Below are positions 41-30,081 of a stretch of DNA of 64,000 bases, in pieces. The stretch covers positions 3,344 through 67,343 of IMG/VR virus record IMGVR_UViG_3300029720_000418; one strand, 5' to 3'. The stretch comes from a virus. Position 1 is the first letter of the stretch; each line of letters starts with the position of its first letter. Position numbers and translations under genes: made by a program. The notes beneath the pieces are model-generated. The model was not told the origin of the DNA and ran no database searches. It saw only the letters and a list, made by a program, of their open reading frames with translations.

Positions 41-68
41 TTCGCATAAATATCATCCTATTCTATGG
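41..68 (+). promoter_or_regulatory. degenerate copy of the conserved 28-bp promoter-like motif
   Basis: TTCGCATAAATATCATCCTATTCTATGG. Confidence 0.35.
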
Positions 69-80
69 GAGGTGAGAACA

Positions 81-248
81 GTGAAAAACATACTGACGAT
101 TATCATGAGTATAGTATTGGTTCTTATGCTGGCGATTGATATATTTTTCTATCAAAGACCAGAAGGAAGAATGTTTATGCTTATACTCGCAACAATTGGA
201 GGCGTATGCAGCATCATTATGTTTGAACAAGACGAAGCAGAGTCCTAA
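81..248 (+). CDS. small membrane protein (56 aa)
   Basis: GTG start 7 nt after RBS GGGAGGTG. Hydrophobic product. The annotated ATG at 21 lies inside a terminator/promoter cassette. The gene ends in the shared ...EES-stop terminator hairpin. Confidence 0.45.
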   Translation: MKNILTIIMSIVLVLMLAIDIFFYQRPEGRMFMLILATIGGVCSIIMFEQDEAES

Positions 249-267
249 CACGGGCTCTTCTTTTTAT
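237..267 (+). terminator. rho-independent terminator (EES-stop cassette)
   Basis: AGAGTCC-TAACACG-GGCTCT followed by a T-run. The stem encodes the gene's C-terminal E-S-stop. Confidence 0.5.
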
Positions 268-295
268 TTCGCGAAAATTACATACGCTATTATGA
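268..295 (+). promoter_or_regulatory. conserved promoter-like motif copy
   Basis: TTCGCGAAAATTACATACGCTATTATGA. Confidence 0.5.
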
Positions 296-448
296 GAGAA
301 TAAAGTATGTTTGACCGGCCAATTTATAATTGGTGCTTGCGACAAGATAAACAGGAATCGAAGCGCGTACGGAGTGGAACGCTCAATAAAATTTAACGGT
401 ACGTATACAAAGACTCAGGATCAAAAACTTGAGCATTCTCTTTTCTTT

Positions 449-476
449 TTCGCGAAAATTACATTTCCTATTATGA
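449..476 (+). promoter_or_regulatory. conserved promoter-like motif copy
   Basis: TTCGCGAAAATTACATTTCCTATTATGA. Confidence 0.5.
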
Positions 477-505
477 AAAACAATTCATAAAAAGGAGTGA
501 TTTAT

Positions 506-733
506 ATGATGAATTTATATAATTATTTAGCAGTTATGATTACAGAGCGTATGACTGGATTGGATCATACTTGTCTCAAGATTTGGGATTTTTATACATA
601 TGTGTATACATTATCTACAGTTGAGAAAGCTATGAACATTACAATCATAGGTTTGGTATTAATTACTATATGCGTTATAGCAATCATTGTATTAAACAAA
701 TTTGAGAAGAAATTGAAGAGGGAGGAAGCCTAA
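506..733 (+). CDS. small protein with C-terminal TM segment
   Basis: ATG 8 nt after AAGGAG. Followed by a hairpin plus T-run at 721-755. Confidence 0.5.
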   Translation: MMNLYNYLAVMITERMTGLDHTCLKIWDFYTYVYTLSTVEKAMNITIIGLVLITICVIAIIVLNKFEKKLKREEA

Positions 734-878
734 CATGGGCTTCTTCTCTTTTTATTTTTAATCTAGATTAGAATTTTATATTTTACAACACAGACAAACC
801 CATAATAAATGATATTTTGATATTGGAAAAATTCCCGGGTGGGGTTTTCATAAAAACAAAATGGAAGGAGGAAAACAA

Positions 879-1085
879 ATGGTTGCATTAGCGATTACTT
901 TGGTGATTACCAACATTCTTTGGCTTTTATATTTTCAGTGGTGGCGGAAGAAGAAAACATTGGGATCTATCATTATTACGGACGAAGACTCTTTGTACGT
1001 AGAATTGGAAGATCACGAGTCTATGGATAAGATTCATAAGAGTAAAGATGTTATTTTTTCAGTGCATATGGAATCGCGTAAATAA
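879..1085 (+). CDS. small membrane protein (N-terminal TM)
   Basis: RBS GGAAGGAGG upstream of an internal ATG. The first 25 residues are hydrophobic. Confidence 0.5.
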   Translation: MVALAITLVITNILWLLYFQWWRKKKTLGSIIITDEDSLYVELEDHESMDKIHKSKDVIFSVHMESRK

Positions 1086-1125
1086 CGTGGGCTATTATGA
1101 ATAAAATTTAAGGAGGTATAAAGCA

Positions 1126-1482
1126 ATGGACAAAATTAAGGAAGCATTGTGGAATGACTACGAGGAGAAGAAGGGATTATTGAATGACATGGAACCAGGC
1201 TCAGACGAGTATAAGGTTGTTGCATCAGAAGTCGATAATATCCGGAAAGAGCTTATTGATGTCGATAAGACTGTAGCTGAGAACGAATTTAAGGTTACTC
1301 AGGCGGCAGACGATTCGAAGAAAGAGAAGACTCGGAACCGGATTTCTATCGGAACTTTTATTACATCAACCGCATTATCGTTGTATGCCATTGGAAAGAC
1401 ATTCAAATTTGATTCGTCATCGACAGTCACATCCACATTGGGTCGGAATATTTTGAATGCGTTTATTCCAAAGAAGAGATAA
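1126..1482 (+). CDS. hypothetical protein (118 aa), coiled-coil N-terminus and C-terminal TM
   Basis: RBS TAAGGAGG 8 nt upstream of the ATG. Confidence 0.55.
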   Translation: MDKIKEALWNDYEEKKGLLNDMEPGSDEYKVVASEVDNIRKELIDVDKTVAENEFKVTQAADDSKKEKTRNRISIGTFITSTALSLYAIGKTFKFDSSSTVTSTLGRNILNAFIPKKR

Positions 1483-1524
1483 TTATTCAAAACGGGACGC
1501 TGAGGAAACTTGGCGTCTTAGTTT

Positions 1525-1552
1525 TTCGCGAAATAAACATCGACTATTATGA
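1525..1552 (+). promoter_or_regulatory. conserved promoter-like motif copy
   Basis: TTCGCGAAATAAACATCGACTATTATGA. Confidence 0.5.
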
Positions 1553-1625
1553 AAGGATGATATATAATTATTTATATTATTGTCCTTATCTTAACGGAAA
1601 GGGCTTGCTTTAAGGAGGCAGGTAA

Positions 1626-1781
1626 ATGGAAGATAACATGAAAGAATTTGTTGCATTCAGTAGAAAACTACTGAGAAGTTTGAAAGAACTTCGTGAACTT
1701 CTGGCTAAGGACGATAAGGAATTAGCTTTGAAGAAACTCGATGAGTTGATTGACGATACTCAGAAGGATATTGAAGCATAA
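1626..1781 (+). CDS. small helical peptide (51 aa)
   Basis: Below the ORF-track size cut-off. RBS AGGAGG. It lies between promoter copy 1525-1552 and a terminator at ~1795-1840. Confidence 0.4.
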   Translation: MEDNMKEFVAFSRKLLRSLKELRELLAKDDKELALKKLDELIDDTQKDIEA

Positions 1782-1848
1782 TATCAAGTTATCAGAAATG
1801 GCCTGTGGTTGAAAAATCGCAGGCTCTTTCTTTTTTATATATTTTATT

Positions 1849-2208
1849 ATGAGATATCATTACGAAAAACCAGAACTATACAATTCAATATATGGGCAGA
1901 TATACGAATGTAATCACCCAGTCTATAGCAGGTGCACATTATATTTGATAGGTAATAAGGGCTTAGCTGTGATCCAGCAGCGGTATAATCCGGAGAATAA
2001 AACAACTTGGTGGTCGGAGATAGATCCATGGTTGAATAATGCTTTATATTTACATCCAGGATTTAAGAAGTTTTTCGATGAGAGAGCTGGAGAGCCAGTC
2101 GAAGGATTGTATCCGACCGTATCAGTACGGCAAATCATGTGGGCTTTGAAGATGAAACCAATAAAGCGAGAACGATGGGAAACATGTTTTGATCGGCGAT
2201 ATATTTGA
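1849..2208 (+). CDS. hypothetical protein (119 aa)
   Basis: Long ORF immediately after a terminator. No SD: the ATG sits in a TATTATGAGA -10-like box, so the transcript may be leaderless. Confidence 0.4.
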   Translation: MRYHYEKPELYNSIYGQIYECNHPVYSRCTLYLIGNKGLAVIQQRYNPENKTTWWSEIDPWLNNALYLHPGFKKFFDERAGEPVEGLYPTVSVRQIMWALKMKPIKRERWETCFDRRYI

Positions 2209-2209
2209 A

Positions 2210-2238: not shown

Positions 2239-2248
2239 GGTGATATTT

Positions 2249-2461: not shown

Positions 2462-2466
2462 GAAAT

Positions 2467-2853: not shown

Positions 2854-3030
2854 ATGATACTTACAACATTATTAATTATTGCAGCTTTAATAACAATAGT
2901 GGTTTTAGCATTTGCGGTATTAGCCGGAGGTGCAGGATTCTTATTGGTGTTTGGAGATGTAATTGTATTTGTATTGGTGATTGTAGGAATTATTAAATCC
3001 TTAACCAGGAGAAAGAAATCCAAGAAATAG
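2854..3030 (+). CDS. extremely hydrophobic peptide (58 aa)
   Basis: RBS AAGGAAGG. Product is a single long TM stretch with a KK-rich tail. Promoter copy at 2797-2824. Confidence 0.45.
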   Translation: MILTTLLIIAALITIVVLAFAVLAGGAGFLLVFGDVIVFVLVIVGIIKSLTRRKKSKK

Positions 3031-3056
3031 GAGAGCTACGGCTCTCTTATTTTTCG
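3031..3056 (+). terminator. rho-independent terminator (duplicated at 3477-3500)
   Basis: GAGAGCTACGGCTCTC followed by TTATTTTT. Confidence 0.55.
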
Positions 3057-3080
3057 CGAAAAATACTTTCACTATTATGA
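3053..3080 (+). promoter_or_regulatory. conserved promoter-like motif copy
   Basis: TTCGCGAAAAATACTTTCACTATTATGA. Confidence 0.5.
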
Positions 3081-3329: not shown

Positions 3330-3345
3330 TGGACTCTTCTTTTTC
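3319..3345 (+). terminator. rho-independent terminator
   Basis: GGAGTCC-TAAT-GGACTC followed by TTCTTTTT. Confidence 0.55.
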
Positions 3346-3370
3346 GCGAAATTTACAAAGCCTATTATGA
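3343..3370 (+). promoter_or_regulatory. conserved promoter-like motif copy
   Basis: TTCGCGAAATTTACAAAGCCTATTATGA. Confidence 0.5.
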
Positions 3371-3478: not shown

Positions 3479-3500
3479 GAGAGCTACGGCTCTCTTATTT

Positions 3501-3528
3501 TTCGCAAAATTTTCATTGGCTATTATGA
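3501..3528 (+). promoter_or_regulatory. conserved promoter-like motif copy
   Basis: TTCGCAAAATTTTCATTGGCTATTATGA. Confidence 0.45.
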
Positions 3529-3554: not shown

Positions 3555-3758
3555 ATGAAAAAGGCTATTAAAATTATCGGAAAGATTACGAAATGGTATT
3601 TAATATTAGATGCGATTGTATGTGCATATATTGGAGTATGCCGGATGATCCATTTGGTTATGAAATATCCCCAAAAATCTATTCTGGAAATAGACGAAAT
3701 AGCTTTGGATGAGGCTGACGCTGAATTCAAAAAATATTATAACAAATATATTAAATAA
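3555..3758 (+). CDS. small membrane protein (67 aa)
   Basis: RBS TAAGGAGGG. N-terminal TM segment. Confidence 0.5.
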   Translation: MKKAIKIIGKITKWYLILDAIVCAYIGVCRMIHLVMKYPQKSILEIDEIALDEADAEFKKYYNKYIK

Positions 3759-3804
3759 GAGGGCTTCGGCTCTCTTATTTTTCAATAAGAAAGGAGATGA
3801 TCTA

Positions 3805-4584
3805 TTGATCAATGCAAAATTATTTCTCAAAAGACACTCTTCAACAATTTTAGCATGTCTTGGATGTGCAGGGGTTATAGTGACTTCTGTAACGGCTGTA
3901 CGAGCAACCCCAAAGGCTATTAAACTATTAGAAGAAGCCGAAGAAAACAAAGGATCTGAATTAACAACATGGGAAAAAGCCAAGACAACGACGAAAGCAT
4001 ATTTACCGTCGATATTGTTTGGTGTTTCAACCATTGCGTGTATTGCCGGTTCTTCGATTCTTTCATATAACACCCAGAAATCTATGGCAAGTGCATACGC
4101 TTTGATAAATCAATCGTATCGAGATTATCGTAGAAAAGCAAAAGATATTTACGGCGAAGATGCAGATAGAAAGATTCTTGATGCGATCATTGCTGAAAAA
4201 GCGAAGACTATGTACGTAGAAGCTCCTGGTATTTGTGATTGTGCGACCTTATACATCGACGAGAATCACGGAGAGAAACGATTGTTCTACGACGAATATG
4301 GCAAGCGATTCTTTGAATCAACGTTGGAGCAAGTTATATCAGCGGAGTATCATACGAACCGTAATTTTGTATTACGCGGATCACAGATGCTAAATGAATT
4401 CTATGGGTTCCTGGGTTTGGAACCTACTGATTTTGGTTGGGAAGCTGGATGGTGTGTTATGGATGAGTTTTATTGGATTGATTTTGATCATAGTGAAATT
4501 GAAATCGATGGCAAGAAATGTATCGTCATTCGGATGCCATGGGAACCTAAAATCGGATACGACGATGATAATTATTACTATTAA
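3805..4584 (+). CDS. paralog A of a two-TM membrane protein family (with 5150-5929 and 7534-8466)
   Basis: TTG start 8 nt after AAGGAG. Shares the N-terminal motif K-HS..IL..LG.AG..V.AA.ATPKA and a second TM. Also shares the C-terminal FYxxxGL...IGW domain. Confidence 0.6.
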   Translation: MINAKLFLKRHSSTILACLGCAGVIVTSVTAVRATPKAIKLLEEAEENKGSELTTWEKAKTTTKAYLPSILFGVSTIACIAGSSILSYNTQKSMASAYALINQSYRDYRRKAKDIYGEDADRKILDAIIAEKAKTMYVEAPGICDCATLYIDENHGEKRLFYDEYGKRFFESTLEQVISAEYHTNRNFVLRGSQMLNEFYGFLGLEPTDFGWEAGWCVMDEFYWIDFDHSEIEIDGKKCIVIRMPWEPKIGYDDDNYYY

Positions 4585-4612
4585 TTCGCGAAAACAACAT
4601 TTACTATTATGA
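4585..4612 (+). promoter_or_regulatory. conserved promoter-like motif copy
   Basis: TTCGCGAAAACAACATTTACTATTATGA. Confidence 0.5.
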
Positions 4613-4890: not shown

Positions 4891-4919
4891 TTCGCACGAA
4901 ATACATTGGCTATTATGGA
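4891..4919 (+). promoter_or_regulatory. conserved promoter-like motif copy
   Basis: TTCGCACGAAATACATTGGCTATTATGGA. Confidence 0.45.
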
Positions 4920-5149: not shown

Positions 5150-5929
5150 ATGAGTAAAGAATCATTTGCGAGATTTGTGAAAAGCACAAAAAGAGGTCTC
5201 GTAAAACACAGTCCGGAAATCTTAACCGGATTAGGAATCGCAGGAATGATATCATCTGTCGTTCTTGCAGCAAAAGCAACACCTAAAGCACTTCAGTTGA
5301 TTGAAGAAGCGAAGGATAAGGCGGATACAGACAAGCTTACAGTACCAGAAACAATCAAGGCAGCATGGAAGCCATATATTCCAGTTGTACTTACATGTGG
5401 TGCATCCGTAGCTTGTATCATTGGTGCCAATACGGTAAATACACGTCGTAATGCTGCTCTTGCTACAGCATATGAGCTCTCGAGAAATGCTCTGACCGAG
5501 TATAAGGAGCGTGTTGTAGAGGAGATCGGTAAGGAAAAGGAACAGAAGATACAGGAAAAGGTTGCTCAGAAAAAAGTAGACAATACACCTGTTACATCCG
5601 AGGTTATTGTAACTGGAGGCGGGGACATATTGTTCCTTGAACCTGTATCAGAGAGATATTTCAAATCCGATGTTGAGACTATTCGTAGAATCATCAACGA
5701 TTTGAACTATCGATTAATGAATGGCAGCGAGGAGTATGTATCGTTGAGTGATTTCTATGATGAAGTCGGTTTGACTCATACGGCAATCAGTAATGATATT
5801 GGGTGGAATTTGAATCATGATGGTCAGATATCGGTCAGCTTGCCCGCAACAAAGACAGACAAGGGAGAGCCATGCCTGATGTTGGATTATCATGTAGCAC
5901 CGCGGTACGATTATTCAAAATTATCGTAA
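5150..5929 (+). CDS. paralog B of the two-TM membrane protein family
   Basis: RBS GGAGGAAT. N- and C-terminal similarity to 3805-4584 and 7534-8466 is visible by eye. Confidence 0.65.
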   Translation: MSKESFARFVKSTKRGLVKHSPEILTGLGIAGMISSVVLAAKATPKALQLIEEAKDKADTDKLTVPETIKAAWKPYIPVVLTCGASVACIIGANTVNTRRNAALATAYELSRNALTEYKERVVEEIGKEKEQKIQEKVAQKKVDNTPVTSEVIVTGGGDILFLEPVSERYFKSDVETIRRIINDLNYRLMNGSEEYVSLSDFYDEVGLTHTAISNDIGWNLNHDGQISVSLPATKTDKGEPCLMLDYHVAPRYDYSKLS

Positions 5930-5957
5930 TTCGCGAAAAATACAAGCACTATTATGA
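5930..5957 (+). promoter_or_regulatory. conserved promoter-like motif copy
   Basis: TTCGCGAAAAATACAAGCACTATTATGA. Confidence 0.5.
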
Positions 5958-7533: not shown

Positions 7534-8466
7534 ATGAAGAATGATTTGAAAAATAAGATGACTCGGTCATTATGTAAGGCAAAGTTTAAGGTTAAAAAGC
7601 ATAGTCCAGAGATCTTGGTTGTTGCAGGCGTGATTGGTACGGTGACAAGTGCTGTGATGGCATGTCGCGCTACAACAAAGCTGAGTAAGATTCTCGATGA
7701 GGCGAAAGAGACAGAGAAGACAATCTCTGAAGGAATGGAAAGTGGATATATCGCAGATCAGGAATACACAGAGGAAGACGGCAAGAAGGATCTCAGAATC
7801 ACAAAGGTTCAGACTGGATTAAAGGTTGTAAAGCTGTATGCACCAGCTGTTATCCTTGGCGGATTATCAATCACAGCCATGCTGACATCTAACAATATTC
7901 TCAGAAAGAGAAACGTATCACTTGCAGCGGCATATGCAGCAGTAGATAAGAGTTTCAAGGAATATCGTGGCAGAGTAAAGGAACGTTTCGGTGAAGAGCT
8001 GGACAAGGAGCTTCGTTACAACATCAAGGCGAAGGAAATCGAAGAAGTAGTTAAGGACGAGAAGACCGGTAAGGAAAAGGTTCAGAAAAAGATCGTGAAC
8101 GTTTCTGATTTTGATGATTGCAGCGAGTACGCAAAGTTTTATGATTGCGGTTGCACTGGATGGACGAAAGATCCAGAATTGAATTTGATGTTTCTTAGAA
8201 AACAGCAGGATTTCTTGAATGATCGGTTAAAGGCTGAGGGTTATCTGTTCTTGAATGACGTGTATGATGCTCTTGGCATTCAGAAAACAAAGATTGGTCA
8301 GATTGCAGGTTGGATTTACGATGAAAAGAATCCAGTCGGAGATAACTATATCGATTTCGGAATTTATGACACTCATCGTGAGGCAAATAGAAGATTTGTA
8401 AACGGTCTTGAGAGAACAATTCTTCTTGATTTCAATTGTGATGGTGACATTCTGGACATGATGTGA
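7534..8466 (+). CDS. paralog C of the two-TM membrane protein family
   Basis: RBS AAAGGAG. Has the KKHSPEILVVAGVIG N-terminus and the IGQIAGW C-terminal motif. Confidence 0.65.
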   Translation: MKNDLKNKMTRSLCKAKFKVKKHSPEILVVAGVIGTVTSAVMACRATTKLSKILDEAKETEKTISEGMESGYIADQEYTEEDGKKDLRITKVQTGLKVVKLYAPAVILGGLSITAMLTSNNILRKRNVSLAAAYAAVDKSFKEYRGRVKERFGEELDKELRYNIKAKEIEEVVKDEKTGKEKVQKKIVNVSDFDDCSEYAKFYDCGCTGWTKDPELNLMFLRKQQDFLNDRLKAEGYLFLNDVYDALGIQKTKIGQIAGWIYDEKNPVGDNYIDFGIYDTHREANRRFVNGLERTILLDFNCDGDILDMM

Positions 8467-9948: not shown

Positions 9949-12900
9949 ATGGCTGATTTTTATAGAATAGCTTATCAGAATAAGCAAGGCATGATAGAAA
10001 TATTTCCTAAATTCATTATTGGGAATAGCTCCGATCTTATGATACGAGGTGGCGATTTTTATGCTGTATGGTTGGAAGACAAAGGTCTGTGGTCTACTGA
10101 TGAGCAAGACGTCATTCGAATGATCGACAGAGATCTGGATAAGTATGTCACAGATAATAGTCCAAGGTTCGATACGAACACAAAGATTAAATATATGTGG
10201 GATGCAGAATCTGGATCGATTGACCGATGGCATAAGTATTGTCAGAAACAACAAAGGGACTCATTTCACATGTTGGATGAAAAACTTATATTTTCCAATA
10301 GTGAGACAAACAAGAAAGATTATGCCAGCAAACGATTGAATTATCCATTGGAACCTGGTAAATGTCCAGCTTATGAGAAGATTATATCAACGATATATTC
10401 GGAGGAAGAAAGACATAAGATTGAATGGGCAATCGGGTCTATTGTTACCGGCGATTCCAAGACAATACAGAAATTTCTTGTATTGTATGGCGCTGCTGGT
10501 ACAGGTAAATCAACCATCTTGAACATTATCCAACAGTTATTTGAGGGTTACTATTCGGTATTTGATGCGAAGGCATTGGGGTCGAGTAGTAACTCTTTTG
10601 CGTTAGAGGCATTTAAGTCGAACCCGCTGATTGCAATTCAGCATGATGGAGATCTGTCTAAGATCGAAGATAATACGAGATTAAATAGTCTTGTATCTCA
10701 TGAGATGATGACTGTGAATGAGAAATTCAAGTCAACCTATGCCAGCCAGTTTAAGTGTTTTCTATTCATGGGTACAAACAAGCCAGTACGGATCACAGAT
10801 GCAAAATCAGGTCTTATACGAAGATTGATTGATGTGTCACCTTCCGGAAAGAAAGTTAGCCCTAAAGAATACAACACTTTAATGGAGCAGGTTAAGTTTG
10901 AGCTTGGTGCTATTGCTTGTCATTGCAGAGATGTATATTTGGAAGATCCTGGGTATTATGACACATATCTTCCAATGTCAATGATGAGTGCATCAAATGA
11001 TTTCTACAACTTCATTATTGATTCGTTTCATGTATTCAAAAAAGAAGACGGAACAACGTTAAAGGCAGCATGGGAAATGTACAAAACATATTGTGATGAG
11101 GCAAAAGTTCCATATCCATTTTCTCAGAGAAGTTTTAAAGAAGAGCTTAAAAACTATTTTTGGGATTTTGACGAGGAGATTGATGAGGATGGATCTAAGA
11201 TAAGAAACATTTATCACGGATTTCGAACCGAGAAATTTGAGACTTTTAGTCACAGAAAAAGAGAGGAAAAAAATGTGACTAACTCAGAATCTTGGCTGCA
11301 ATTCATGAATGCTGCAGAAACAACAAAGAGCTTTGATATGGAATGTGAATCATGCCCAGCTCAATATGCAACGGACAAAGAAACCCCAAGTAAATCTTGG
11401 AACCGAGTCACAACCACACTCAAAGACATCGATCCATCGAAACTTCATTATGTCAAGGTTCCAGAGAATCACATAGTTATTGACTTTGATTTGAAGGGCG
11501 ATGACGGCAAAAAATCGTTTGAAAAGAATTTGGAGGCTGCTGCGAAGTGGCCACCTACGTATGCGGAGCTTAGTAAAAGTGAGGCAGGGATCCATCTTCA
11601 TTATATTTATAATGGGGATGTATCAAAATTAAGTCGTATATACGATGAAAACATTGAAATAAAGGTTTTTACAGGTAAGAGTTCTCTTAGACGAAAACTT
11701 ACCAAGTGCAATAATTTATCTGTTGCGATGATAAGCTCCGGACTACCTATGAAAGGAGAAAAGATGATAGATAAAAATATTGTACAATCTGAGAAAGGTC
11801 TCAGAACAACAATTAAAAAATGTCTTAATAAAGAAGTCCACGCTGGTACAAAATCCAATGTGGACTTTATTTATAAGATTTTGGATGATGCTTACAATGG
11901 CGGTCTTCATTATGATGTATCAGACATGAAGAATGAGGTATTAGCATTTGCTGCTAACAGTACCAATCAGGCACCATATTGTATCAAGCTGGCGAGTAAG
12001 ATGAAATTCAAGTCAGAAGAGATATCAGACGGCAAAGCGGATGAAAATGCACCATCGATATTTTATGATATTGAGGTATTTCCGAACTTATTCTTGGTCA
12101 ATTGGAAAATCCAGGGAGAAGGAAACCCCGTAGTTCGAATGATCAATCCAAGTCCAAAAGACATCGAGGATCTGATCAAATACAATCTTGTAGGGTTCAA
12201 CTGTCGAAGATATGATAACCATCTCATCTATGCAAGACTTATGGGATATACGAATGAGGAACTATATAACTTGTCTCAGAAAATTATATCTGGAGATAGA
12301 AATGCGTTCTTTGGGGAAGCTTACAATTTGTCTTATACAGATGTGTATGACTTTGCATCCGCTGGAAACAAAAAGAGCTTGAAGAAGCTTGAAATTGAGA
12401 TGTCGAACAAAGCAAATGACCCTACATCAAAAATGGATGATGGTCTTAGAAAGATGCTCAAGAACATTAAGCATCAGGAGTTGGGTCTGCCTTGGGACCA
12501 GCCGGTTCCGAAAGAATTATGGACCAAAGTTGCAGAGTATTGTGATAATGATGTCATTTCGACCGAGGCAGCATTCTTATATTTGTCTGCGGATTGGACA
12601 GCTAGACAGATTCTGGCGGACTTAGCGGGTATGACTGTAAATGACACGACAAACACTCTTACAACCAGAATTATATTTGGTCGGGAGAAAAATCCACAGA
12701 GTCAGTTCAATTACAGAGATTTGGCAGAACCGGTCACAGAAATGACATTGGAGATGCAGGAATTTTTAAAAGAAGCTTGTCCAGAAATGATAGCTGAACC
12801 ACATGGTGAAGCAAAAAGCATGTTACCTTATTTTCCAGGGTATAAGTACGAAGCCGGTAAATCAACATATCGAGGAGAGGTTGTTGGCGAAGGCGGATAT

Positions 12901-14106
12901 GTATATTCTGAACCAGGTATGTACGGAAACGTAGCATTACTTGATATTGCATCTATGCATCCTCATAGTGCTATCGCAGAGGTATTGTTTGGTGTTAAAT
13001 TTACACAGGCATTTAGAGATATTGTTGAGGGTCGTGTAAGTATCAAACATCAGGCTTGGGATGAGGTAAATCACATGCTTGATGGTAAACTTACGCCTTA
13101 TATTCAGAAAGTCATTGATGGTGAAATGACAGCTAAGCAGCTTGCAAATGCATTGAAGACTGCAATCAACTCTGTATACGGATTAACTTCAGCAAGCTTC
13201 AGCAATGCGTTTAGAGATCCGCGTAATAAGGACAATATTGTAGCTAAACGTGGTGCTTTATTCATGATTGACTTGAAGAATGAGGTGCAGGCAAGAGGAT
13301 TTACAGTTGCTCATATCAAGACGGACTCAATCAAGATTCCAGACGCAACGCCAGAAATCATACAGTTCGTTATGGATTTCGGTAAAAGATATGGTTATAC
13401 ATTTGAGCATGAGGCTACGTATGACAGAATGTGCCTCGTAAATGATGCAGTTTATATCGCAAAGTACAAAGACGCAGAATCATGTCAGGCTATGTATGGT
13501 TATGCGCCAGGAGATAATGCAGATCATGGTAGAGATTGGACTGCAACAGGTAAGCAGTTCGCCGTACCATATTTATTCAAGACATTGTTTAGTCATGAAG
13601 ATATTGAGTTCAACGATATGTGTGAGACGTTTGCAGTGTCTAAGGGTGATTTATATTTAGATATGAATGAGAACTTGCCTGACGTGGCTAAGTACGAAAT
13701 TGAATTAGAGAAGCTTGAGGAACAGTACAAGAAAGGTAAAATCTCGGATGTTATATTTGAATCCGAATCAGCGGGTCTTCCGGAAAAGATCGCAGAAGGA
13801 CATGAAATGCAGTTTGTAGGGAGAGTTGGTCAGTTCTGTCCGATTATGTCTGGAAACAATGGCGGAATTTTATACCGTGTCTGCGATGGTAAGAATTATG
13901 CTGCACCAGGATCGAGTGGATATCGATGGTTGGAATCTGAGACAGTGAAGAGATTAGGTTTGACTGATAACATTGATCGCTCATTCTATGATGCATTAGT
14001 AAACGATGCAGTAGATAGTATATCACAGTATGGAGATTTTGAGTGGTTTGTATCCGACGATCCATATGTAATGAATTTGGACACGTCGAGAATCCCATTC
14101 AAATAA
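9949..14106 (+). CDS. fused replicase: SF3/D5-like P-loop NTPase + AEP primase-polymerase + family-B DNA polymerase
   Basis: Walker A LYGAAGTGKST at ~10478-10516. AEP motifs IVIDFDLKGDDG and SEAGIHLHYIY at ~11469-11612. PolB Exo I FYDIEVFPN at ~12061, Exo II FNCRRYDNH, Exo III YCDNDV. Motif A LLDIASMHPHS at ~12940, motif B KTAINSVYG at ~13158, motif C IKTDS at ~13316. Confidence 0.8.
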   Translation: MADFYRIAYQNKQGMIEIFPKFIIGNSSDLMIRGGDFYAVWLEDKGLWSTDEQDVIRMIDRDLDKYVTDNSPRFDTNTKIKYMWDAESGSIDRWHKYCQKQQRDSFHMLDEKLIFSNSETNKKDYASKRLNYPLEPGKCPAYEKIISTIYSEEERHKIEWAIGSIVTGDSKTIQKFLVLYGAAGTGKSTILNIIQQLFEGYYSVFDAKALGSSSNSFALEAFKSNPLIAIQHDGDLSKIEDNTRLNSLVSHEMMTVNEKFKSTYASQFKCFLFMGTNKPVRITDAKSGLIRRLIDVSPSGKKVSPKEYNTLMEQVKFELGAIACHCRDVYLEDPGYYDTYLPMSMMSASNDFYNFIIDSFHVFKKEDGTTLKAAWEMYKTYCDEAKVPYPFSQRSFKEELKNYFWDFDEEIDEDGSKIRNIYHGFRTEKFETFSHRKREEKNVTNSESWLQFMNAAETTKSFDMECESCPAQYATDKETPSKSWNRVTTTLKDIDPSKLHYVKVPENHIVIDFDLKGDDGKKSFEKNLEAAAKWPPTYAELSKSEAGIHLHYIYNGDVSKLSRIYDENIEIKVFTGKSSLRRKLTKCNNLSVAMISSGLPMKGEKMIDKNIVQSEKGLRTTIKKCLNKEVHAGTKSNVDFIYKILDDAYNGGLHYDVSDMKNEVLAFAANSTNQAPYCIKLASKMKFKSEEISDGKADENAPSIFYDIEVFPNLFLVNWKIQGEGNPVVRMINPSPKDIEDLIKYNLVGFNCRRYDNHLIYARLMGYTNEELYNLSQKIISGDRNAFFGEAYNLSYTDVYDFASAGNKKSLKKLEIEMSNKANDPTSKMDDGLRKMLKNIKHQELGLPWDQPVPKELWTKVAEYCDNDVISTEAAFLYLSADWTARQILADLAGMTVNDTTNTLTTRIIFGREKNPQSQFNYRDLAEPVTEMTLEMQEFLKEACPEMIAEPHGEAKSMLPYFPGYKYEAGKSTYRGEVVGEGGYVYSEPGMYGNVALLDIASMHPHSAIAEVLFGVKFTQAFRDIVEGRVSIKHQAWDEVNHMLDGKLTPYIQKVIDGEMTAKQLANALKTAINSVYGLTSASFSNAFRDPRNKDNIVAKRGALFMIDLKNEVQARGFTVAHIKTDSIKIPDATPEIIQFVMDFGKRYGYTFEHEATYDRMCLVNDAVYIAKYKDAESCQAMYGYAPGDNADHGRDWTATGKQFAVPYLFKTLFSHEDIEFNDMCETFAVSKGDLYLDMNENLPDVAKYEIELEKLEEQYKKGKISDVIFESESAGLPEKIAEGHEMQFVGRVGQFCPIMSGNNGGILYRVCDGKNYAAPGSSGYRWLESETVKRLGLTDNIDRSFYDALVNDAVDSISQYGDFEWFVSDDPYVMNLDTSRIPFK

Positions 14107-14137: not shown

Positions 14138-14614
14138 ATGGAAGTAACATTTGCACCGAGAGGTATCTTGCAGATTAATGATGCAAGAATTATTTTTAGA
14201 AATTTTAGAGGAGCTGGACGGGCAGCATACAATCGTGAAGGTGATAGAAACTTTGCAGTATCAATCGATTCGACCGAGTTGGCTGATGAGCTGGTGGCAG
14301 AAGGATGGAATGTTAAGATCAAAGATGCCACAGAGGATGGAGAGATGCCAAGAATGCATCTTCCTGTAAAGGTAAAGTTCAACAACAAGGGGCCTCATGT
14401 GTATCTGAAGACTGGGGATAGAGTAAACAAGCTGGACGAGGATTCAGTAGCCATCCTTGATGATATTGATATTCTCAGCGTCAATCTTGACATTCGCCCT
14501 TATGATTGGGAAGTGAATGGAAAAACTGGACGGGCAGCATATTTACAGTCAATCGAGGTCATTCAGAACATCGATCGGTTTGCAGCCGGATATGACATGC
14601 CAGATGAGGAGTAA
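14138..14614 (+). CDS. putative ssDNA-binding protein (DUF2815-like pattern)
   Basis: Lies directly downstream of the polymerase. A duplicated GRAAY motif and the N-terminal pattern resemble phage SSB-like proteins. RBS AAAGGAG. Confidence 0.5.
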   Translation: MEVTFAPRGILQINDARIIFRNFRGAGRAAYNREGDRNFAVSIDSTELADELVAEGWNVKIKDATEDGEMPRMHLPVKVKFNNKGPHVYLKTGDRVNKLDEDSVAILDDIDILSVNLDIRPYDWEVNGKTGRAAYLQSIEVIQNIDRFAAGYDMPDEE

Positions 14615-16609: not shown

Positions 16610-17846
16610 GCCGTTTCTGTACGATTATCAGATGGATGCTGTAAATCATATGTTCAATGGGTGCATTCTCAATGGTGGTGTTGGATCGGGAAAGAGTAGA
16701 ACCGGATTATATTACTACTTCAAAGAACAAGGCGGTAGTATAAATCCAGACTATAAACCGATGAAAAAACCAAAAGATTTATATATTATCACAACCGCTA
16801 TGAAACGGGACAAGCTTGAATGGGATGGAGAATTAGCAAACTTCTTATTGTCCAGAGACGCTAAGAAGAACACATTGAATGGCAACGTAAAAATCGTTGT
16901 TGATTCGTGGAACAGAGTAAAAAAATACATGGCTGTGGAAAATGCGTTCTTCATATTTGACGAACAAAGGGTTGTTGGATCGGGAACTTGGGTTAAGGCA
17001 TTTTTAAAGATAGCCAAAAACAATGATTGGATATTATTATCAGCAACAGCTGGCGATAAATGGCCTGATTATATTCCGGTATTTATAGCAAACGGTTTTT
17101 ATAAAAATCGATCTGAGTTTATTCGGGAACATATTGTATATTCTCGATATACAAAATATCCACAGATTGATAAGTATTTGAACGTCGGACGTCTAATTCG
17201 ATTAAGGAATAAAATTCTGATTGATATGGAATTTAAACGTCCAACGACAGCTCATCACAATGATATTTATGTAACATATGATGTCACTAAGTACAAATCG
17301 GTTGTAAAAAATAGATGGGATCCGTACAAAAATGAACCCATCCAGCAAGCATCAAGTCTTTGTTATATTCTGAGAAGAATAGTGAATGAAGACGAATCCA
17401 GAATAGTAGCTCTATTGGAGATTCTTGAGAAGACTCCTAGAGCTATTATTTTTTATAATTTTGATTACGAGCGAGAGATGCTATTACATGTTTTCAGCAA
17501 CCACGATGAAACAGATAAAGACTTTGAAGTAGCGGAATGGTCTGGACATGCCCACCAACCTGTGCCAGGAACAAAGCGATGGGTATATTTGGTGCAGTAC
17601 ACGGCTGGATGCGAAGGCTGGAATAGTATTAAGACAGACACGATTATATTCTACTCACAGAATTACAGTTATAAGGTTGTGACACAGGCTGCCGGTCGAA
17701 TTGATCGTCTGAATACGCCATTCAAAGATCTATATTATTATCATCTGAAAAGTCGAAGTGGAATTGACCTCGCCATTAGCAAAGCATTGAAGGAGAAGAA
17801 AAAGTTCAATGAAGCAAAGTGGTGTAAAAATTCATTCGCGAAATAA
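16599..17846 (+). CDS. SF2 (DEAD/DEAH-like) helicase
   Basis: Motif I GGVGSGKS, motif II FIFDEQR, motif III LSATAG, motif VI QAAGRIDR. The start could instead be the GTG at 16590. Confidence 0.7.
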   Translation: MPTKPFLYDYQMDAVNHMFNGCILNGGVGSGKSRTGLYYYFKEQGGSINPDYKPMKKPKDLYIITTAMKRDKLEWDGELANFLLSRDAKKNTLNGNVKIVVDSWNRVKKYMAVENAFFIFDEQRVVGSGTWVKAFLKIAKNNDWILLSATAGDKWPDYIPVFIANGFYKNRSEFIREHIVYSRYTKYPQIDKYLNVGRLIRLRNKILIDMEFKRPTTAHHNDIYVTYDVTKYKSVVKNRWDPYKNEPIQQASSLCYILRRIVNEDESRIVALLEILEKTPRAIIFYNFDYEREMLLHVFSNHDETDKDFEVAEWSGHAHQPVPGTKRWVYLVQYTAGCEGWNSIKTDTIIFYSQNYSYKVVTQAAGRIDRLNTPFKDLYYYHLKSRSGIDLAISKALKEKKKFNEAKWCKNSFAK

Positions 17847-17862
17847 TCATGCCCTTATATGA
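17835..17862 (+). promoter_or_regulatory. conserved promoter-like motif copy (overlaps the helicase stop codon)
   Basis: TTCGCGAAATAATCATGCCCTTATATGA. Confidence 0.45.
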
Positions 17863-21519: not shown

Positions 21520-21780
21520 ATGATTAAATTAAGAGATTTATTACAACAGTGTAGTTGCGATGTTTATATTTTTGGAAATGGTAACTGTCCATGCCCAGAA
21601 ATAAAACTTCCAAAACCGCTTGTGAAGGCGGAAAAATATTTGAATGCTGATATTTTGAATCAGGGTGTGCGGAATATATCCATATGTGATGGACATTTGC
21701 AGGTTTGGCTGGAAGATAAATCTATTCAAGACGTTGTTGATTCTAAGTTAAAAGAAATGGAGGATGAAAGTAATGAGTAA
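21520..21780 (+). CDS. hypothetical Cys-rich protein, paralog of 23488-23685
   Basis: Both proteins start MIKLxDLL and share a ...VWLE C-terminal motif. RBS AAGGAGG. Confidence 0.5.
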   Translation: MIKLRDLLQQCSCDVYIFGNGNCPCPEIKLPKPLVKAEKYLNADILNQGVRNISICDGHLQVWLEDKSIQDVVDSKLKEMEDESNE

Positions 21781-22603: not shown

Positions 22604-23446
22604 ATGAAAAAATATGAATTAACAAATGAAACAATCGAATATAAAGGAAAAAAATTATATAGAATTAAGGCTCTAATTGATTTTGGAAATGTAGAAAAAG
22701 GAGCTCGTGGTGGGTTCGTTGAAAAAGAGGAAAATCTTAGTATGTCTGGTAATGCTTGGGTATGTGATAATGCTCGGGTATGTGATAATGCTCGGGTATG
22801 TGGAGATGCTAATGTGTGTGGTGATGCTTTTGTGTCTGATAATGCTCAGGTGTCTGGTGATGCTTTTGTGTGTGGTAATGCTTGGGTATGTGATAATGCT
22901 CGGGTATGTGGAGATGCTAATGTGTGTGGTAATGCTTGGGTATGTGATAATGCTCAGGTGTCTGGTGATGCTCGGGTGTCTGGTAATGCTCAGGTGTCTG
23001 GTGATGCTCGGGTATGTGATAATGCTCGGGTATGTGATAATGCTCGGGTATGTGGAGATGCTAATGTGTGTGGTGATGCTTTTGTGTCTGATAATGCTCA
23101 GGTGTCTGGTGATGCTTTTGTGTGTGGTAATGCTTGGGTATGTGGTGGTGCTAATGTGTGTGGAGATGCTAATGTGTGTGGTGATGCTAATGTGTGTGGT
23201 GATGCTCAGGTGGATAAGAGCATCAATTATGCCGTGATCAAAGGTTTCGGCACTTGTTATAGATCTACGACATTTTTCAGATGTCAAGACAAAACAGTAA
23301 AAGTATCCTGCGGATGTTTTTTAGGAACCATCGACGAATTCAGAAATCAAGTAAAAAACACGCGTGGAGGAAAAATTGCAAAAGAATATTTAATGATTGC
23401 TGATCTAATGGAAATACATTTTTCGGAGGATGGATACGATGGTTAA
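22604..23446 (+). CDS. Cys-rich hexapeptide-repeat (left-handed beta-helix-like) protein with a globular C-terminal domain
   Basis: About 27 consecutive hexads of [GDN][DN]A[RWFNQ]V[CS], encoded by 18-bp tandem DNA repeats at 22744-23215. RBS AAAGGAG. Confidence 0.6.
   Translation: MKKYELTNETIEYKGKKLYRIKALIDFGNVEKGARGGFVEKEENLSMSGNAWVCDNARVCDNARVCGDANVCGDAFVSDNAQVSGDAFVCGNAWVCDNARVCGDANVCGNAWVCDNAQVSGDARVSGNAQVSGDARVCDNARVCDNARVCGDANVCGDAFVSDNAQVSGDAFVCGNAWVCGGANVCGDANVCGDANVCGDAQVDKSINYAVIKGFGTCYRSTTFFRCQDKTVKVSCGCFLGTIDEFRNQVKNTRGGKIAKEYLMIADLMEIHFSEDGYDG
22744..23215 (+). repeat. 18-bp tandem repeat array (~27 units) encoding the hexapeptide repeats
   Basis: The unit GG(T/A)(G/A)ATGCTNNNGT(G/A)T(G/C)T recurs. 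A ~140-bp higher-order block (22743-22890) is duplicated at ~23020-23150. Confidence 0.7.
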
Positions 23447-24066: not shown

Positions 24067-24094
24067 TTCGCGAAATTTACAAGGTGTATTATGA
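24067..24094 (+). promoter_or_regulatory. conserved promoter-like motif copy inside the ThyX interruption
   Basis: TTCGCGAAATTTACAAGGTGTATTATGA. Confidence 0.5.
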
Positions 24095-24284
24095 GAGAAT
24101 AGACACTCGAAAGGGCAGTGAAGTTTGAGGATCCAAGCATCATTGGAAACTAATCGGGAAGGAGATAATAGTGAAAACTATGCACGAGGCTAGATCGAAA
24201 GATGAACTATATTGAAAGATATACCATGAGCCTGAGGGAAATATCGGCGTCCTTCGAGTGGAATTGATGTATTCTCTTTTCTTT

Positions 24285-24312
24285 TTCGCGAAAATTACAT
24301 CTCCTATTATGA
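24285..24312 (+). promoter_or_regulatory. conserved promoter-like motif copy inside the ThyX interruption
   Basis: TTCGCGAAAATTACATCTCCTATTATGA. Confidence 0.5.
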
Positions 24313-26826: not shown

Positions 26827-26855
26827 TTCGCGTAGAAAACGTACCATTTTATGGA
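26827..26855 (+). promoter_or_regulatory. conserved promoter-like motif copy (variant; duplicate of the 2210 cassette)
   Basis: TTCGCGTAGAAAACGTACCATTTTATGGA. Confidence 0.45.
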
Positions 26856-27929: not shown

Positions 27930-28096
27930 TAACTATTCGGCATTCTCCATAAAACGTGGAATATTTTGGCATATTGTATTGATAAACCGTAGACATCCTA
28001 CGGTTTTATTTTTTGCCCGGGCTTTATCAAAGCGTAGGGTAGAAGACAAATTATATAACTGGTGTTTATGTATGAAGATGAATGAGGTGATTGAAT

Positions 28097-28369
28097 ATGA
28101 AGGTAAAAGTTTTTGATTCTCGTAAGAGTATTGATCTGGAGAACCAGATAAATGAATTTATCAAAGATAAAGTTGTTTATGACATTCGGCAGTCAACGTT
28201 TACAGTTCCGGCAAAAATTGATAAGGATGGCAAGACTGTTCGTGTTGATATTTTTAGCAGGGTGATTGTTATGTATGACAATGCTAAGAAGAATGTATTT
28301 AAGTCGAGTAGTTTGAGAAGTACCTTTGGAATATTTGATGATTTTGGAGGGGGTGTGAAGCCAGTATGA
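28097..28369 (+). CDS. hypothetical protein (90 aa)
   Basis: ATG after GAGGTGA. Confidence 0.5.
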   Translation: MKVKVFDSRKSIDLENQINEFIKDKVVYDIRQSTFTVPAKIDKDGKTVRVDIFSRVIVMYDNAKKNVFKSSSLRSTFGIFDDFGGGVKPV

Positions 28370-28554
28370 TAAATCTATTTGTTGAGAGCTATTGTCAGAA
28401 TTGTCCATATTTTGAGCCAGTCGCAGAAAAGCTTGTTGATTATTATGATAGTAGGGCTGTTGAAACTCGAGTTCATTGCTCGGATATGAATAAATGTAAC
28501 ATCATACATAATCAGATTCTTGAAGAACAAGCTAAAAAGTTGGAGACACAGTAA
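28366..28554 (+). CDS. hypothetical Cys-containing protein (62 aa)
   Basis: ATGA overlap with the upstream gene. Confidence 0.45.
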   Translation: MINLFVESYCQNCPYFEPVAEKLVDYYDSRAVETRVHCSDMNKCNIIHNQILEEQAKKLETQ

Positions 28555-28574
28555 AGAAGTAAGAGGTGATTGAT

Positions 28575-28904
28575 ATGACTACTATTGCGGTCTTGTGTAA
28601 GGACAATAAAGATGCCGGGCATTTGTTTTGTGAATTGGTCAACCGACTTAGGGCTGCTGGTATAACGATGAATCGTTTGATATGGCACCAATCAGTTATC
28701 GGGAATAAGAAATGTCGAGTTCGGGTTTATTCTTGTTCAGACGGCAGAGAAGAATGGAGAGGGACTAAGGTAGATATGACATTCGGATTTTCAGTAAAGC
28801 AACAGCATGAAATATTAAAAGAAGGGTGTCAAGCCAGCCGGAAATATATTGAGATGAGGGATGATTATGCAGGGATCTTGAGTGGTTATTTTGGAGCAAA
28901 ATAG
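28575..28904 (+). CDS. hypothetical protein (109 aa)
   Basis: ATG after AAGAGGTGA. Confidence 0.5.
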   Translation: MTTIAVLCKDNKDAGHLFCELVNRLRAAGITMNRLIWHQSVIGNKKCRVRVYSCSDGREEWRGTKVDMTFGFSVKQQHEILKEGCQASRKYIEMRDDYAGILSGYFGAK

Positions 28905-29007
28905 CTTGCATGGATGAAAAACTTGCACGCACAGAAGTTGCATGCACGAAAATACTTGCATGGACGAAAGTTTTTTTAGAGTGATTTTTATGAATTTTTT
29001 GGACGAC

Positions 29008-29021
29008 TTGCATGCGTGCAA
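29008..29021. promoter_or_regulatory. operator-like palindrome O1
   Basis: TTGCATGCGTGCAA (TTGCA-N4-TGCAA). Confidence 0.5.
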
Positions 29022-29067
29022 TTTTGGGCTTCAAAAAACCACGTATTTAAGCCATTTTTGGGCATTA

Positions 29068-29083
29068 CTTGCACGTATGCAAG
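29068..29083. promoter_or_regulatory. operator-like palindrome O2 (perfect 16-mer)
   Basis: CTTGCACGTATGCAAG. Confidence 0.55.
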
Positions 29084-29131
29084 CACCCTTAATCGATATT
29101 AAAAAATATATATTATATAAGAAAATAAGCG

Positions 29132-29147
29132 CTTGCATGTGTGCAAG
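29132..29147. promoter_or_regulatory. operator-like palindrome O3, between the -10 region and the RBS of the HTH gene
   Basis: CTTGCATGTGTGCAAG. Additional half-sites CTTGCA(T/C)G lie at 28905-28965. Confidence 0.55.
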
Positions 29148-29170
29148 TTTTTAGGAGGTGAAAACAAACC

Positions 29171-29401
29171 ATGAGTGAAACTGAATTTATTGACATTTTT
29201 AGTGATAATTTAAGAGATCTTATGATTGAGCGTAATTACACACAAAGATCGTTGGCAAAGGAAGCGGAATTGTCTGAATCAGCCATTACAAGATTTTTAC
29301 AGAAAAAGTCTATGCCGACATTACGAGCAGTTATTAATTTATCTTTGTCGCTCAGTTGTGATGTGGACGATCTGATTCCAACATATGATTATATCAAGTA
29401 G
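29171..29401 (+). CDS. XRE-family HTH regulator (Cro/CI-like), probably autoregulated via the upstream operator array
   Basis: HTH YTQRSLAKEAELSESAITRFL. RBS TAGGAGGTG. Operators lie at 29007-29147. Confidence 0.65.
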   Translation: MSETEFIDIFSDNLRDLMIERNYTQRSLAKEAELSESAITRFLQKKSMPTLRAVINLSLSLSCDVDDLIPTYDYIK

Positions 29402-29416
29402 AAAGGAGACGAGTAA

Positions 29417-29572
29417 ATGATATCACTTGAGTTTGCTGTAAAGTGCGTTACATTACTTATTTGTATTTATCCGCTTAGTATTTATCCAATAGTGGATAGA
29501 ATCTGTAGATGTAAGGAGCAGAAATATGTAAGCGATGTTATTAAGAAAAATACTGATGATAACAAACAGTAA
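29417..29572 (+). CDS. small membrane peptide (51 aa)
   Basis: Below the track cut-off. RBS AAAGGAGACG. Confidence 0.3.
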   Translation: MISLEFAVKCVTLLICIYPLSIYPIVDRICRCKEQKYVSDVIKKNTDDNKQ

Positions 29573-29642
29573 ATTAATATTTAAGAGAGGCGTTGGTTTT
29601 TACTGACGCTTTTCTTTTTGCAATGAAAGGAGAACAAAAATT

Positions 29643-30032
29643 ATGAATTATAAAACAAAACGAGATGGAGTGCGAGTGAGGATTGTAGAAACTGGTGAAG
29701 AGTTCAATTCTATTCGAGCATGCGCATTCAGATTGGGCGTTGATGTTACTTGGCTTGGAAAAGTCACAAGAGGAAATAATGGATTATGTACTTGTAAAGG
29801 TTATCACATTATTCGTGTAGAAGATCCCCGAGCAAATTATGATATTTCGAGAAAAGAATATCGTGGGAGAAAAGGACGAGCTGTTCGGATAGTCGAAACC
29901 GGAGAAACATTTAATTCCATATCTGAATGTGCAGATGCAATTGGTGGTAGCGCTGGAAGTATTTGTGAAATATTGAGAGGTCACAATAGAAGAGCAACGC
30001 ACATGGGTTACCACTTTGAATATGTAAAATGA
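29643..30032 (+). CDS. tandem NUMOD1-like DNA-binding repeats, no nuclease domain
   Basis: Two copies of VRIVETGExFNSIxxCAxxxG......I..LRG......GYHF, as in the DNA-binding modules of GIY-YIG/HNH homing endonucleases. Confidence 0.5.
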   Translation: MNYKTKRDGVRVRIVETGEEFNSIRACAFRLGVDVTWLGKVTRGNNGLCTCKGYHIIRVEDPRANYDISRKEYRGRKGRAVRIVETGETFNSISECADAIGGSAGSICEILRGHNRRATHMGYHFEYVK

Positions 30033-30054
30033 TTCAGTGCGAATAAAACATACC

Positions 30055-30081
30055 CCGCGGAAATATCATGCCCTTTTATGA
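30055..30081 (+). promoter_or_regulatory. variant promoter-like motif (same 3' half as the 17835 copy)
   Basis: CCGCGGAAATATCATGCCCTTTTATGA, followed by a structured ~110-nt leader. Confidence 0.35.

Follow-up and report, generated by a model that had tools for sequence, protein, structure and literature searches.

A repeated 28-bp promoter-like motif co-occurs with a single-chain, two-barrel RNA polymerase gene in phages of two host phyla

This analysis concerns a 28-bp promoter-like motif that recurs in a DNA stretch of 64,000 nucleotides from a gut phage (positions 3,344 to 67,343 of IMG/VR record IMGVR_UViG_3300029720_000418; this whole stretch is hereafter called the window), together with the phage RNA polymerase (RNAP) that may read it. 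The substantial open reading frames (ORFs) of the window are all on the + strand, as are the motif copies, the genes of the RNAP operon and the cos-like terminus described below. Small, often membrane-type ORFs, with three DUF6353 paralogs, occupy 1–6 kb; replication genes (a primase-polymerase at 9949–14106, a protein that binds single-stranded DNA (SSB) and a helicase) lie within 6–30 kb; an operon of two nuclease genes and the RNAP gene (31013–33988) comes next; and HNH, terminase, portal, capsid, tail and lysis genes fill the part after ~34.3 kb, beyond a cos-like site. The motif itself occurs in 19 copies, every one of them on the + strand and within 1–30.1 kb.

The form of the motif is TTCGCGAAAATTACAT-N4-TATTATGA, which gives 11 matches at up to three mismatches in the window as compared with 0.00 in shuffled sequence, while a looser pattern (TTCGC-N15-TATTATG) gives 15 matches vs 0.46 expected in shuffles. 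A position weight matrix (PWM) made from the 19 sites scores its own sites at 28–47 bits, vs 9.9 bits for the best match in 20 shuffles and 16.7 bits for the best match on the minus strand. Its most informative columns are C3-G4-C5, C14 and the T-A-T-G at positions 24–27, and when applied to 31–64 kb it returned zero sites, i.e., the late genes are without a copy. The TATTATG block varies among copies (TTTTATG, CTTTATG, TTATATG, TTCTATG), with A as the second base of "TATTAT" in 13 of the 19, and within the window consensus TTCGCGAA forms an 8-bp palindrome without a loop. An earlier, sequence-only reading of the window had listed 18 positions for this motif, and the motif is indeed present at all of them, on the strand and with the 14-nt gap between TTCGCG and TATTAT that it described. 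However, the last listed copy begins at 30054 and has the variant CCCGCG, one further copy (the 19th, at 1073) had been missed, and the N6 spacer as it was written finds 0 matches even at three mismatches, the correct spacer being N4. The motif scan of the window and of related phages that it had proposed recovers the 19 window sites by PWM and the same architecture in the relatives (see below).

The copies begin at the left edge of the window with 41–68 (TTCGCATAAATATCATCCTATTCTATGG), which lies directly 3′ of a terminator hairpin at 5–35, and continue with two exact matches to the consensus at 268–295 and 449–476, the former heading an ORF-less unit of ~155 nt that a hairpin and T-run close before the latter. 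The newly found copy at 1073–1100 reads ATCGCGTAAATAACGTGGGCTATTATGA, and the copy at 1525–1552, called by both pattern and PWM, has its start codon 75 nt after the G of TATG. At 2210–2237 the variant TTTTATGG has GGAGG beginning at G27 and an ATG 13 nt after G27; a further variant (CTTTATGA) lies at 2510–2537 and another exact consensus at 2797–2824. Pattern and PWM agree on the copies at 3053–3080, 3343–3370, 3501–3528, 4585–4612 and 5930–5957, and the looser pattern and PWM on that at 4891–4918. The remaining copies stand at 17835–17862 (TTATATGA, overlapping the end of the helicase ORF), 24067–24094 (heading a unit of ~190 nt without an ORF), 24285–24312 (exact consensus, with a Shine–Dalgarno (SD) sequence 2 nt and ATG 16 nt after G27), 26827–26854 (TTTTATGG again, with a leader identical to that of the 2210 copy) and 30054–30081 (CCCGCGGAAATATCATGCCCTTTTATGA). 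This last copy heads the endonuclease–exonuclease–RNAP operon, and its position is kept in the phages FP_oengus and KeaneyLin and in ~70 viral contigs. A degenerate copy is seen at ~1826–1858, after a terminator at 1800–1825, where TATTATGAGA is present and the upstream TTCGCG/ACA half is absent.

In its placement the motif behaves as a promoter would, being strand-specific and positioned ahead of genes, and this general description by the sequence-only reading stands. Specifically, at 16 copies a ribosome-binding site (RBS) starts 0–27 nt and a start codon 11–41 nt after the G of TATG, although the claim that every copy precedes an RBS and start codon fails at copies 268 and 24067, which are without a downstream ORF. 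Likewise, a strong hairpin with a T-run lies directly upstream of 8–9 of the 19 copies and the rest follow a stop codon or weak structure, so that the description of copies as "usually" following a terminator hairpin was too strong. Terminator-like hairpins are enriched on the + strand of the window (23 vs 8.7 and 19 vs 9.6 in shuffles). The two ORF-less stretches behind copies 268 and 24067 (294–448 and 24093–24284) both begin with GAGAGAAUA, and in both units this predicted 5′ end pairs with UAUUCUC just before the U-run (folding z ~ −1.8), a pattern that is no more than suggestive; both stretches are candidate small RNAs.

The operon headed by the 30054 copy opens with genes for a VRR-Nuc-type endonuclease (30193–30483) and a Cas4-like exonuclease (30455–31009), followed by the gene for a 991-amino-acid (aa) single-chain, two-barrel RNAP of the QDE-1/YonO-like type (31013–33988), the candidate reader of the motif, and a small ORF (phrog_4303; 33994–34245) that directly follows the RNAP gene in all relatives examined. 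The ORF at 31013–33988 has a full-length match to phrog_4291, generic helix-turn-helix (HTH) matches near aa 100–127 and 950–990, and a metal-binding DxDGD loop (SGADFDGDTV at aa 527–536) that is invariant in six cross-phylum homologs and 55 metagenomic homologs. A search of its sequence against PDB chains gave nothing significant. Its AlphaFold2 model (mean pLDDT 77.6), compared with the PDB by Foldseek, matched QDE-1 (7y7s) best (E 3e-6, probability 1.0), then plant RDR2, followed by Pol II/III largest subunits and beta′ of bacterial RNAP, with low TM-scores (0.24–0.29) in keeping with a match that covers the core and not the whole chain. By its modelled fold, then, the protein is a QDE-1/YonO-like polymerase with two double-psi beta-barrels, and RNA synthesis is its predicted activity. 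Koert et al. (bioRxiv 10.1101/842583) had already flagged the protein as a putative polymerase similar to YonO and RNA-dependent RNA polymerases (RdRPs), with an HTH at both ends and an HHpred link to RdRP, and had identified it as the signature gene of an actinophage supercluster and of Lactococcus and Faecalibacterium phages. The family is large: tblastn found homologs in 250 sequenced phages, and metagenomes hold at least 8,000 protein clusters at 90% identity, mostly annotated just as "HTH DNA-binding protein." Neither an activity nor a promoter is reported for this family in the searchable literature. Among ~50 window ORFs scanned with Pfam or PHROGs (~40 of them early/middle, many of the small ones unannotated) no match to a sigma factor or to the MotA/AsiA families was found, and the main DNA-binding domains found were the polymerase's own HTH domains.

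The distribution of the motif in other phages follows that of the polymerase gene. The motif is present in all nine polymerase-bearing reference phages examined, where copies were recovered by counting dyads de novo, reading intergenic stretches and iterating the PWM, and it has a shared architecture, tCGC(G/A)-N5-tACA-N5-T.T(A/T)(A/G)TG(A/G)(A/G)A, with the spacing tCGC-N6-tACA-N5-TAT the same throughout. Among Firmicutes and Actinobacteria phages the copies number ~15 in FP_oengus (Faecalibacterium; aCGCGAAAAAT(G/A)CAG-N4-CTTTATGGAAGG), eight in KeaneyLin (Arthrobacter; TTCGCGTAAATTACA(C/A)GGGC-TATAATGA), 10–11 in Kerry (Gordonia; TCGCAGAAATTACACGTCC-TATAATGAGACCCCTA), 14 in ReqiPepy6 (Rhodococcus; TCGCAGAAAAAACACRCCC-TATAATGAGACC), four to five in Bilo (Streptomyces, 60% guanine plus cytosine (GC); TCGCACGTTTTACATGGCT-TATAATGAGACCCCTAC), 9–11 in P078 (Lactococcus; TTTTACATACCC-TATAATGA(A/G)AGG) and 11 in 1706 (Lactococcus; (T)CGCA-N5-TACATAyAC-TATAGTAGAAAG). 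All of these copies are on the gene strand and in the early/middle region, and in the window, FP_oengus and KeaneyLin alike one copy stands ahead of the nuclease–polymerase operon. The family PWM gave no matches in Bilo and P078, because their upstream halves differ, and the copies there were found by dyad counts, intergenic reading and regular expressions; MT835495, an UNVERIFIED scaffold whose polymerase is 60% identical, has two clear copies only. We also considered covariation between the HTH recognition helix and the upstream box, and set it aside as too thin to use, with one informative lineage only (P078 has an SPGSVTNYA helix vs the NES(S/T)(V/I)R type in the other five, and its upstream box is degenerate).

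Larger collections show the same association. In 80 IMG/VR loci collected via polymerase homologs and scanned with the family PWM, 184 motif copies lie on the polymerase strand and 0 on the opposite strand, only three of them are downstream of the polymerase, and nearly every locus with enough flank has one copy ~0.9–1.0 kb upstream of the polymerase start. A BLAST search of 50,697 phage genomes with the 39-nt window consensus matched 44 records, mostly in unannotated spacers, and 41 of the 44 come from phages of Arthrobacter, Gordonia or Streptomyces or from gut "Bacteriophage sp." scaffolds; polymerase homologs were found in phages of these same three host genera. In 185,579 bacterial species genomes the strict consensus had 0 matches, and a degenerate pattern found at least 120 loci vs fewer than 10 expected by chance (a rough estimate); these loci are mostly on contigs of metagenome-assembled genomes of gut Clostridia, several of them phage-sized, with 39 sharing a homolog of a window gene and 81 having no window-ORF homolog within 8 kb. 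The polymerases of the Actinobacteria and Firmicutes phages that share the motif are only 39–48% identical. These comparisons favor the suggestion, made from the window alone, that the motif has a dedicated recognition factor, maybe an RNAP encoded by the phage, which might enter the cell together with the DNA. While the polymerase family and the general idea of promoters read by phage polymerases are already known, we found no description of this promoter consensus, of its conservation in two phyla or of its link to the polymerase in the searchable literature.

That the motif lacks a canonical sigma-A −35 was proposed from the window and is borne out by a sigma-70 scan, which is not enriched in the window (83 vs 75 and 66 vs 72 in shuffles) and calls no copy with its own TTCGCG and TATTAT boxes, 14 bp apart (a single call at 1540 pairs other hexamers). 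The companion proposal, that TATTAT is a −10 element with transcription starting ~7 nt downstream, is not supported. The position that would be A-11 is A in 29%, T in 57% and G in 14% of 164 unique related sites, whereas T23, A25 and T26 are conserved at 98–99% and G27 at 85%; as these sites were selected by PWM the absolute conservation is inflated, and what counts here is how the columns differ from one another. No other register of the motif yields TAnnnT, and FP_oengus has CTTTAT in essentially all copies. In 47 of 185 sites the SD sequence begins 0–4 nt after G27, with start codons 13–17 nt after G27 (e.g., TTTTAT-GGAGGTGATATTT-ATG at 2210 and 26827 of the window), and since a start 6–8 nt past the hexamer would delete the SD sequence, transcription should begin at or before G27–G28. 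In FP_oengus ARAGORN calls a tRNA (2935–3006) whose start is 1 nt past the G27 of the motif copy at 2908. Taken together, the poor A-11, the SD and tRNA geometry and the pairing between the 5′ and 3′ ends of the ORF-less units make it most likely that the T-rich block abuts the transcription start near G27, as in T7-type promoters. Other tRNAs lie near copies as well: one in ReqiPepy6 (14409–14483) starts 8 nt after the G27 of a motif copy, and several gut phage contigs carry a tRNA (mostly Met, Thr in one) ~50–60 nt behind the copy of the polymerase operon. As a constraint on the start site, the tRNAs near copies in 60 viral loci proved uninformative, lying ~54 nt or more downstream.

We favor, with moderate confidence, the reading that the motif is an early/middle promoter read by the phage polymerase encoded at 31013–33988 and not by host sigma-A, with transcription starting near G27. 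On this reading the HTH domains of the polymerase would bind the upstream half as duplex (the invariant C3-G4-C5, the A-rich tract and A13-C14-A15), the T-rich segment T21.T23-T24-A25-T26 would be melted, and RNA synthesis would begin at or beside G27, comparable to T7-type promoters in which an AT-rich block abuts +1. Each early gene would then form a short unit of promoter, RBS and small ORF, with about half of these units ending in a hairpin and U-run, and one copy would drive the nuclease–polymerase operon itself. Because that operon has its own copy, some enzyme would have to be present when infection begins; the first polymerase may arrive with the virion, leaky host transcription being the alternative, and the late genes, which have no copy, would be expressed by another route. 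Virion delivery is possibly reflected in the homolog of Lactococcus phage 1706 (orf75, 39% identical over its full length), which is labelled a "structural protein" in EU081845, a label that is echoed in the note on ReqiPepy6 gp106 and is presumably the depositing laboratory's term for proteins detected in virions.

Several observations weigh against this reading. Recognition of the motif by the polymerase is drawn from their co-occurrence, and the selection of the 164 sites by PWM, described above, limits what their conservation can say. The FP_oengus tRNA that begins next to G27 has an odd anticodon loop (ARAGORN "tRNA-???"). The polymerase gene adjoins the late module, and YonO, the only characterized relative, transcribes late and not early genes (PMC5467207). 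Two further features, the perfect TATAAT (or TATAGT) of copies in actinophages and Lactococcus phages, a box open to use by host sigma-A, and the hairpin and U-run terminators, which are typical of units transcribed by bacterial RNAP and enriched on the + strand, lead, together with the late role of YonO, to a rival account in which host RNAP with sigma-A uses TAT(A/T)AT as its −10 and a phage protein on TCGCG...ACA replaces the −35 in the manner of T4 MotA/AsiA. The upstream box would fall at about −32 to −17 if TATAAT were the −10, and the HTH-bearing polymerase-like protein could be a mere factor in such a scheme. We nevertheless judge this appropriation of sigma-A unlikely, given how seldom A occupies the A-11 position and the CTTTAT of FP_oengus, a start 6–8 nt downstream that would cut off the SD sequence or tRNA at many sites, conservation that extends beyond the hexamer to G27 and the purine run and looks alike in phages of two host phyla, and the lack of a MotA/AsiA-like protein among the scanned ORFs.

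The other accounts concern where the repeats came from or what else they might do. Copies could be uniform through recent duplication of cassettes within the phage, each carrying an ordinary strong host promoter, and near-identity does extend over more than 40 nt including the leader in some pairs (2210 vs 26827; 3031–3080 vs 3479–3528); yet an architecture common to Actinobacteria and Firmicutes phages with such divergent polymerases is ancient, not recent, and with no −35 and no strict match in any bacterial genome searched we regard this origin as highly unlikely. The possibility that the upstream half is an operator overlapping the promoter, bound by a phage repressor or regulator, was raised in the sequence-only reading and draws on the TTCGCGAA palindrome and on FP_oengus, which is temperate and has an integrase. 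It is weakened by the relatives, in which the palindrome is not kept (the phages of Gordonia and Rhodococcus have TCGCAGAA and those of Streptomyces TCGCACGT, with TCGCAG in all three, and the Lactococcus phages a degenerate form) and most of which are lytic phages whose examined stretches carry neither an integrase nor a repressor gene; moreover, the most conserved bases span 27 bp in fixed phase and without a dyad, leaving an operator quite improbable. Least credible to us is that the repeat serves mainly as a recombination signal or cassette boundary for shuffling small genes. Small genes that vary widely separate the copies, only 39 of 120 degenerate-pattern loci of bacterial genomes share any homolog with the window, and the terminator–promoter junctions resemble the promoter-early stem-loop (PeSL) cassettes of T4-type phages. 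However, the strict strand bias, the fixed distance to the RBS and the conserved copy ahead of the non-variable nuclease–polymerase operon all speak against it, and promoter repeats could give rise to shuffling as a side effect.

The right end of the early/middle region adds a second place where the polymerase may act. A cos-like terminus at 34267–34311 reads GAGGGGGG-TCTGAAAAAACGCAC-CCCCT-CCCTGCAT-CGCCGCCCT, i.e., a G-run hairpin, then CTGCAT, then the CGCCGCCCT overhang. The element is matched by the right-hand physical termini of Bilo, KeaneyLin, Kerry and P078 and by the 3′ cos overhang of 9 nt annotated in ReqiPepy6, and ~20 viral contigs have their ends inside it. By this match, no other large gene lies between the polymerase gene and the right end of the virion DNA, and the late genes start on the far side of cos. 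Many relatives have, between G-run and C-run, a loop of the form TCGC(G/A)AAAAnnnCAC followed by CCCCT, which corresponds to the high-information promoter positions 2–21, and the loop scores above the 99th percentile of background windows in 61% of element windows (redundantly counted), while the window's own loop resembles the upstream half of the motif weakly. From this resemblance the loop may be put forward as a candidate site for polymerase binding at the terminus. In a search for a late promoter, neither a motif copy nor a convincing sigma-A site was found downstream of the polymerase gene or of cos. The HNH endonuclease gene is separated from the first virion gene (35320) by a strong terminator-like hairpin at 35290–35313 that leaves no space for a promoter, so that late expression needs read-through or some other signal. 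As a tentative extension, possible rather than probable, we suggest that an HTH-bearing polymerase of ~990 aa is carried in the virion, maybe tethered to the cos-side half-site, and launches an early program independent of host sigma from a 28-bp promoter recognizable across phages of Firmicutes and Actinobacteria.

Known systems resemble this arrangement in part. T7-type promoters, read by a single-subunit RNAP, are conserved over ~23 bp from −17 to +6. Like these, the motif is long, conserved, strand-specific, repeated before phage genes and co-inherited with a polymerase gene, and it appears to be divided between an upstream part bound as duplex and an AT-rich block next to the start. Unlike in T7, however, the window polymerase, of the two-barrel QDE-1/YonO-like kind, has no relation to T7 RNAP, the motif would drive early/middle genes with the polymerase gene among them, and recognition would probably be through appended HTH domains and not a specificity loop. 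Among T4 promoters, the MotA middle promoters are similar in having a conserved box near −30 in place of a −35, above a TAnnnT-like box, and differ in that the −10-defining A is poorly conserved here, the start-site geometry is incompatible and no MotA/AsiA homologs were found among the scanned ORFs. PeSL cassettes, which Arbiol and colleagues are said to have described in T4-type phages in 2010 with sigma-70 early promoters, likewise place an early promoter after a terminator hairpin among small variable ORFs in a plastic early region; they differ in their sigma-70 promoters, and a hairpin precedes fewer than half of the window copies.

Virion RNAPs offer a further comparison. These include the P23-45 RNAP fused to the tape measure protein (TMP) and the virion RNAP (vRNAP) of N4, the latter using DNA hairpin promoters. 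Packaging in the virion and host-independent early transcription may be shared by the window enzyme, whose homolog in phage 1706 is annotated as a structural protein. Unlike N4, the window has a duplex-type 28-bp consensus and no conserved hairpin (5–7-bp stem, 3-nt loop), only the loopless TTCGCGAA, and its enzyme is ~990 aa long and not 2,000–3,500 aa. The crAss-like phage phi14:2 has a QDE-1-like virion RNAP, gp66, whose early transcripts are without a common upstream motif (bioRxiv 10.1101/2020.03.07.982082), in contrast to the common 28-bp motif of the window lineage. YonO of the Bacillus prophage SPbeta, which transcribes a single late operon from an undefined promoter, is likewise a single-chain RNAP of ~100 kDa, distant kin of multisubunit RNAPs, with a DxDGD loop and a gene beside the late module; the window family differs in its N- and C-terminal HTH domains and in its multi-copy early/middle motif.

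If our reading is true, the motif and the polymerase would form a compact, host-independent polymerase/promoter pair, hundreds of genomes would be re-annotated, and it would be easier to explain how related phages work in two host phyla. If the tentative extension given above holds, the motif would be the first defined promoter consensus for this class of polymerase, and there would be a mechanistic reason why the lineage could cross from one phylum to another with a GC content well under that of its hosts. A multi-copy, cross-phylum consensus is a template that can be tested directly in vitro, and cultivable carriers of the motif are at hand in the Lactococcus phages 1706 and P078 and in Gordonia, Arthrobacter, Streptomyces and Rhodococcus phages.

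A few observations concern the rest of the window. Neither a tRNA nor, in an Rfam scan of the whole window, an RNA family was matched. In a near-identity search of 20 kb against sequenced phages the single match covered 9%, and there is therefore no close isolate. The three DUF6353 paralogs (3709–4584, 5150–5929 and 7534–8466) have their counterpart in FP_oengus, which likewise has three. In the middle region the ORF at 21764–22510 matches Pfam Tad3, a type I Thoeris inhibitor (E 3e-32), and is likely an anti-defense gene by this match. The ORF at 22604–23446 has YdcK beta-solenoid or bactofilin-like repeats, and this repetition in the coding sequence is the probable cause of the ATGCT signal with an 18-bp period that gave the top dyad count of the window. 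Polymerases 95–99% identical to that of the window are on contigs of 97–224 kb, which exceed a phage genome of ~60 kb, and the window spans a joined cos; the source is thus probably a prophage, a concatemer or a circular assembly.

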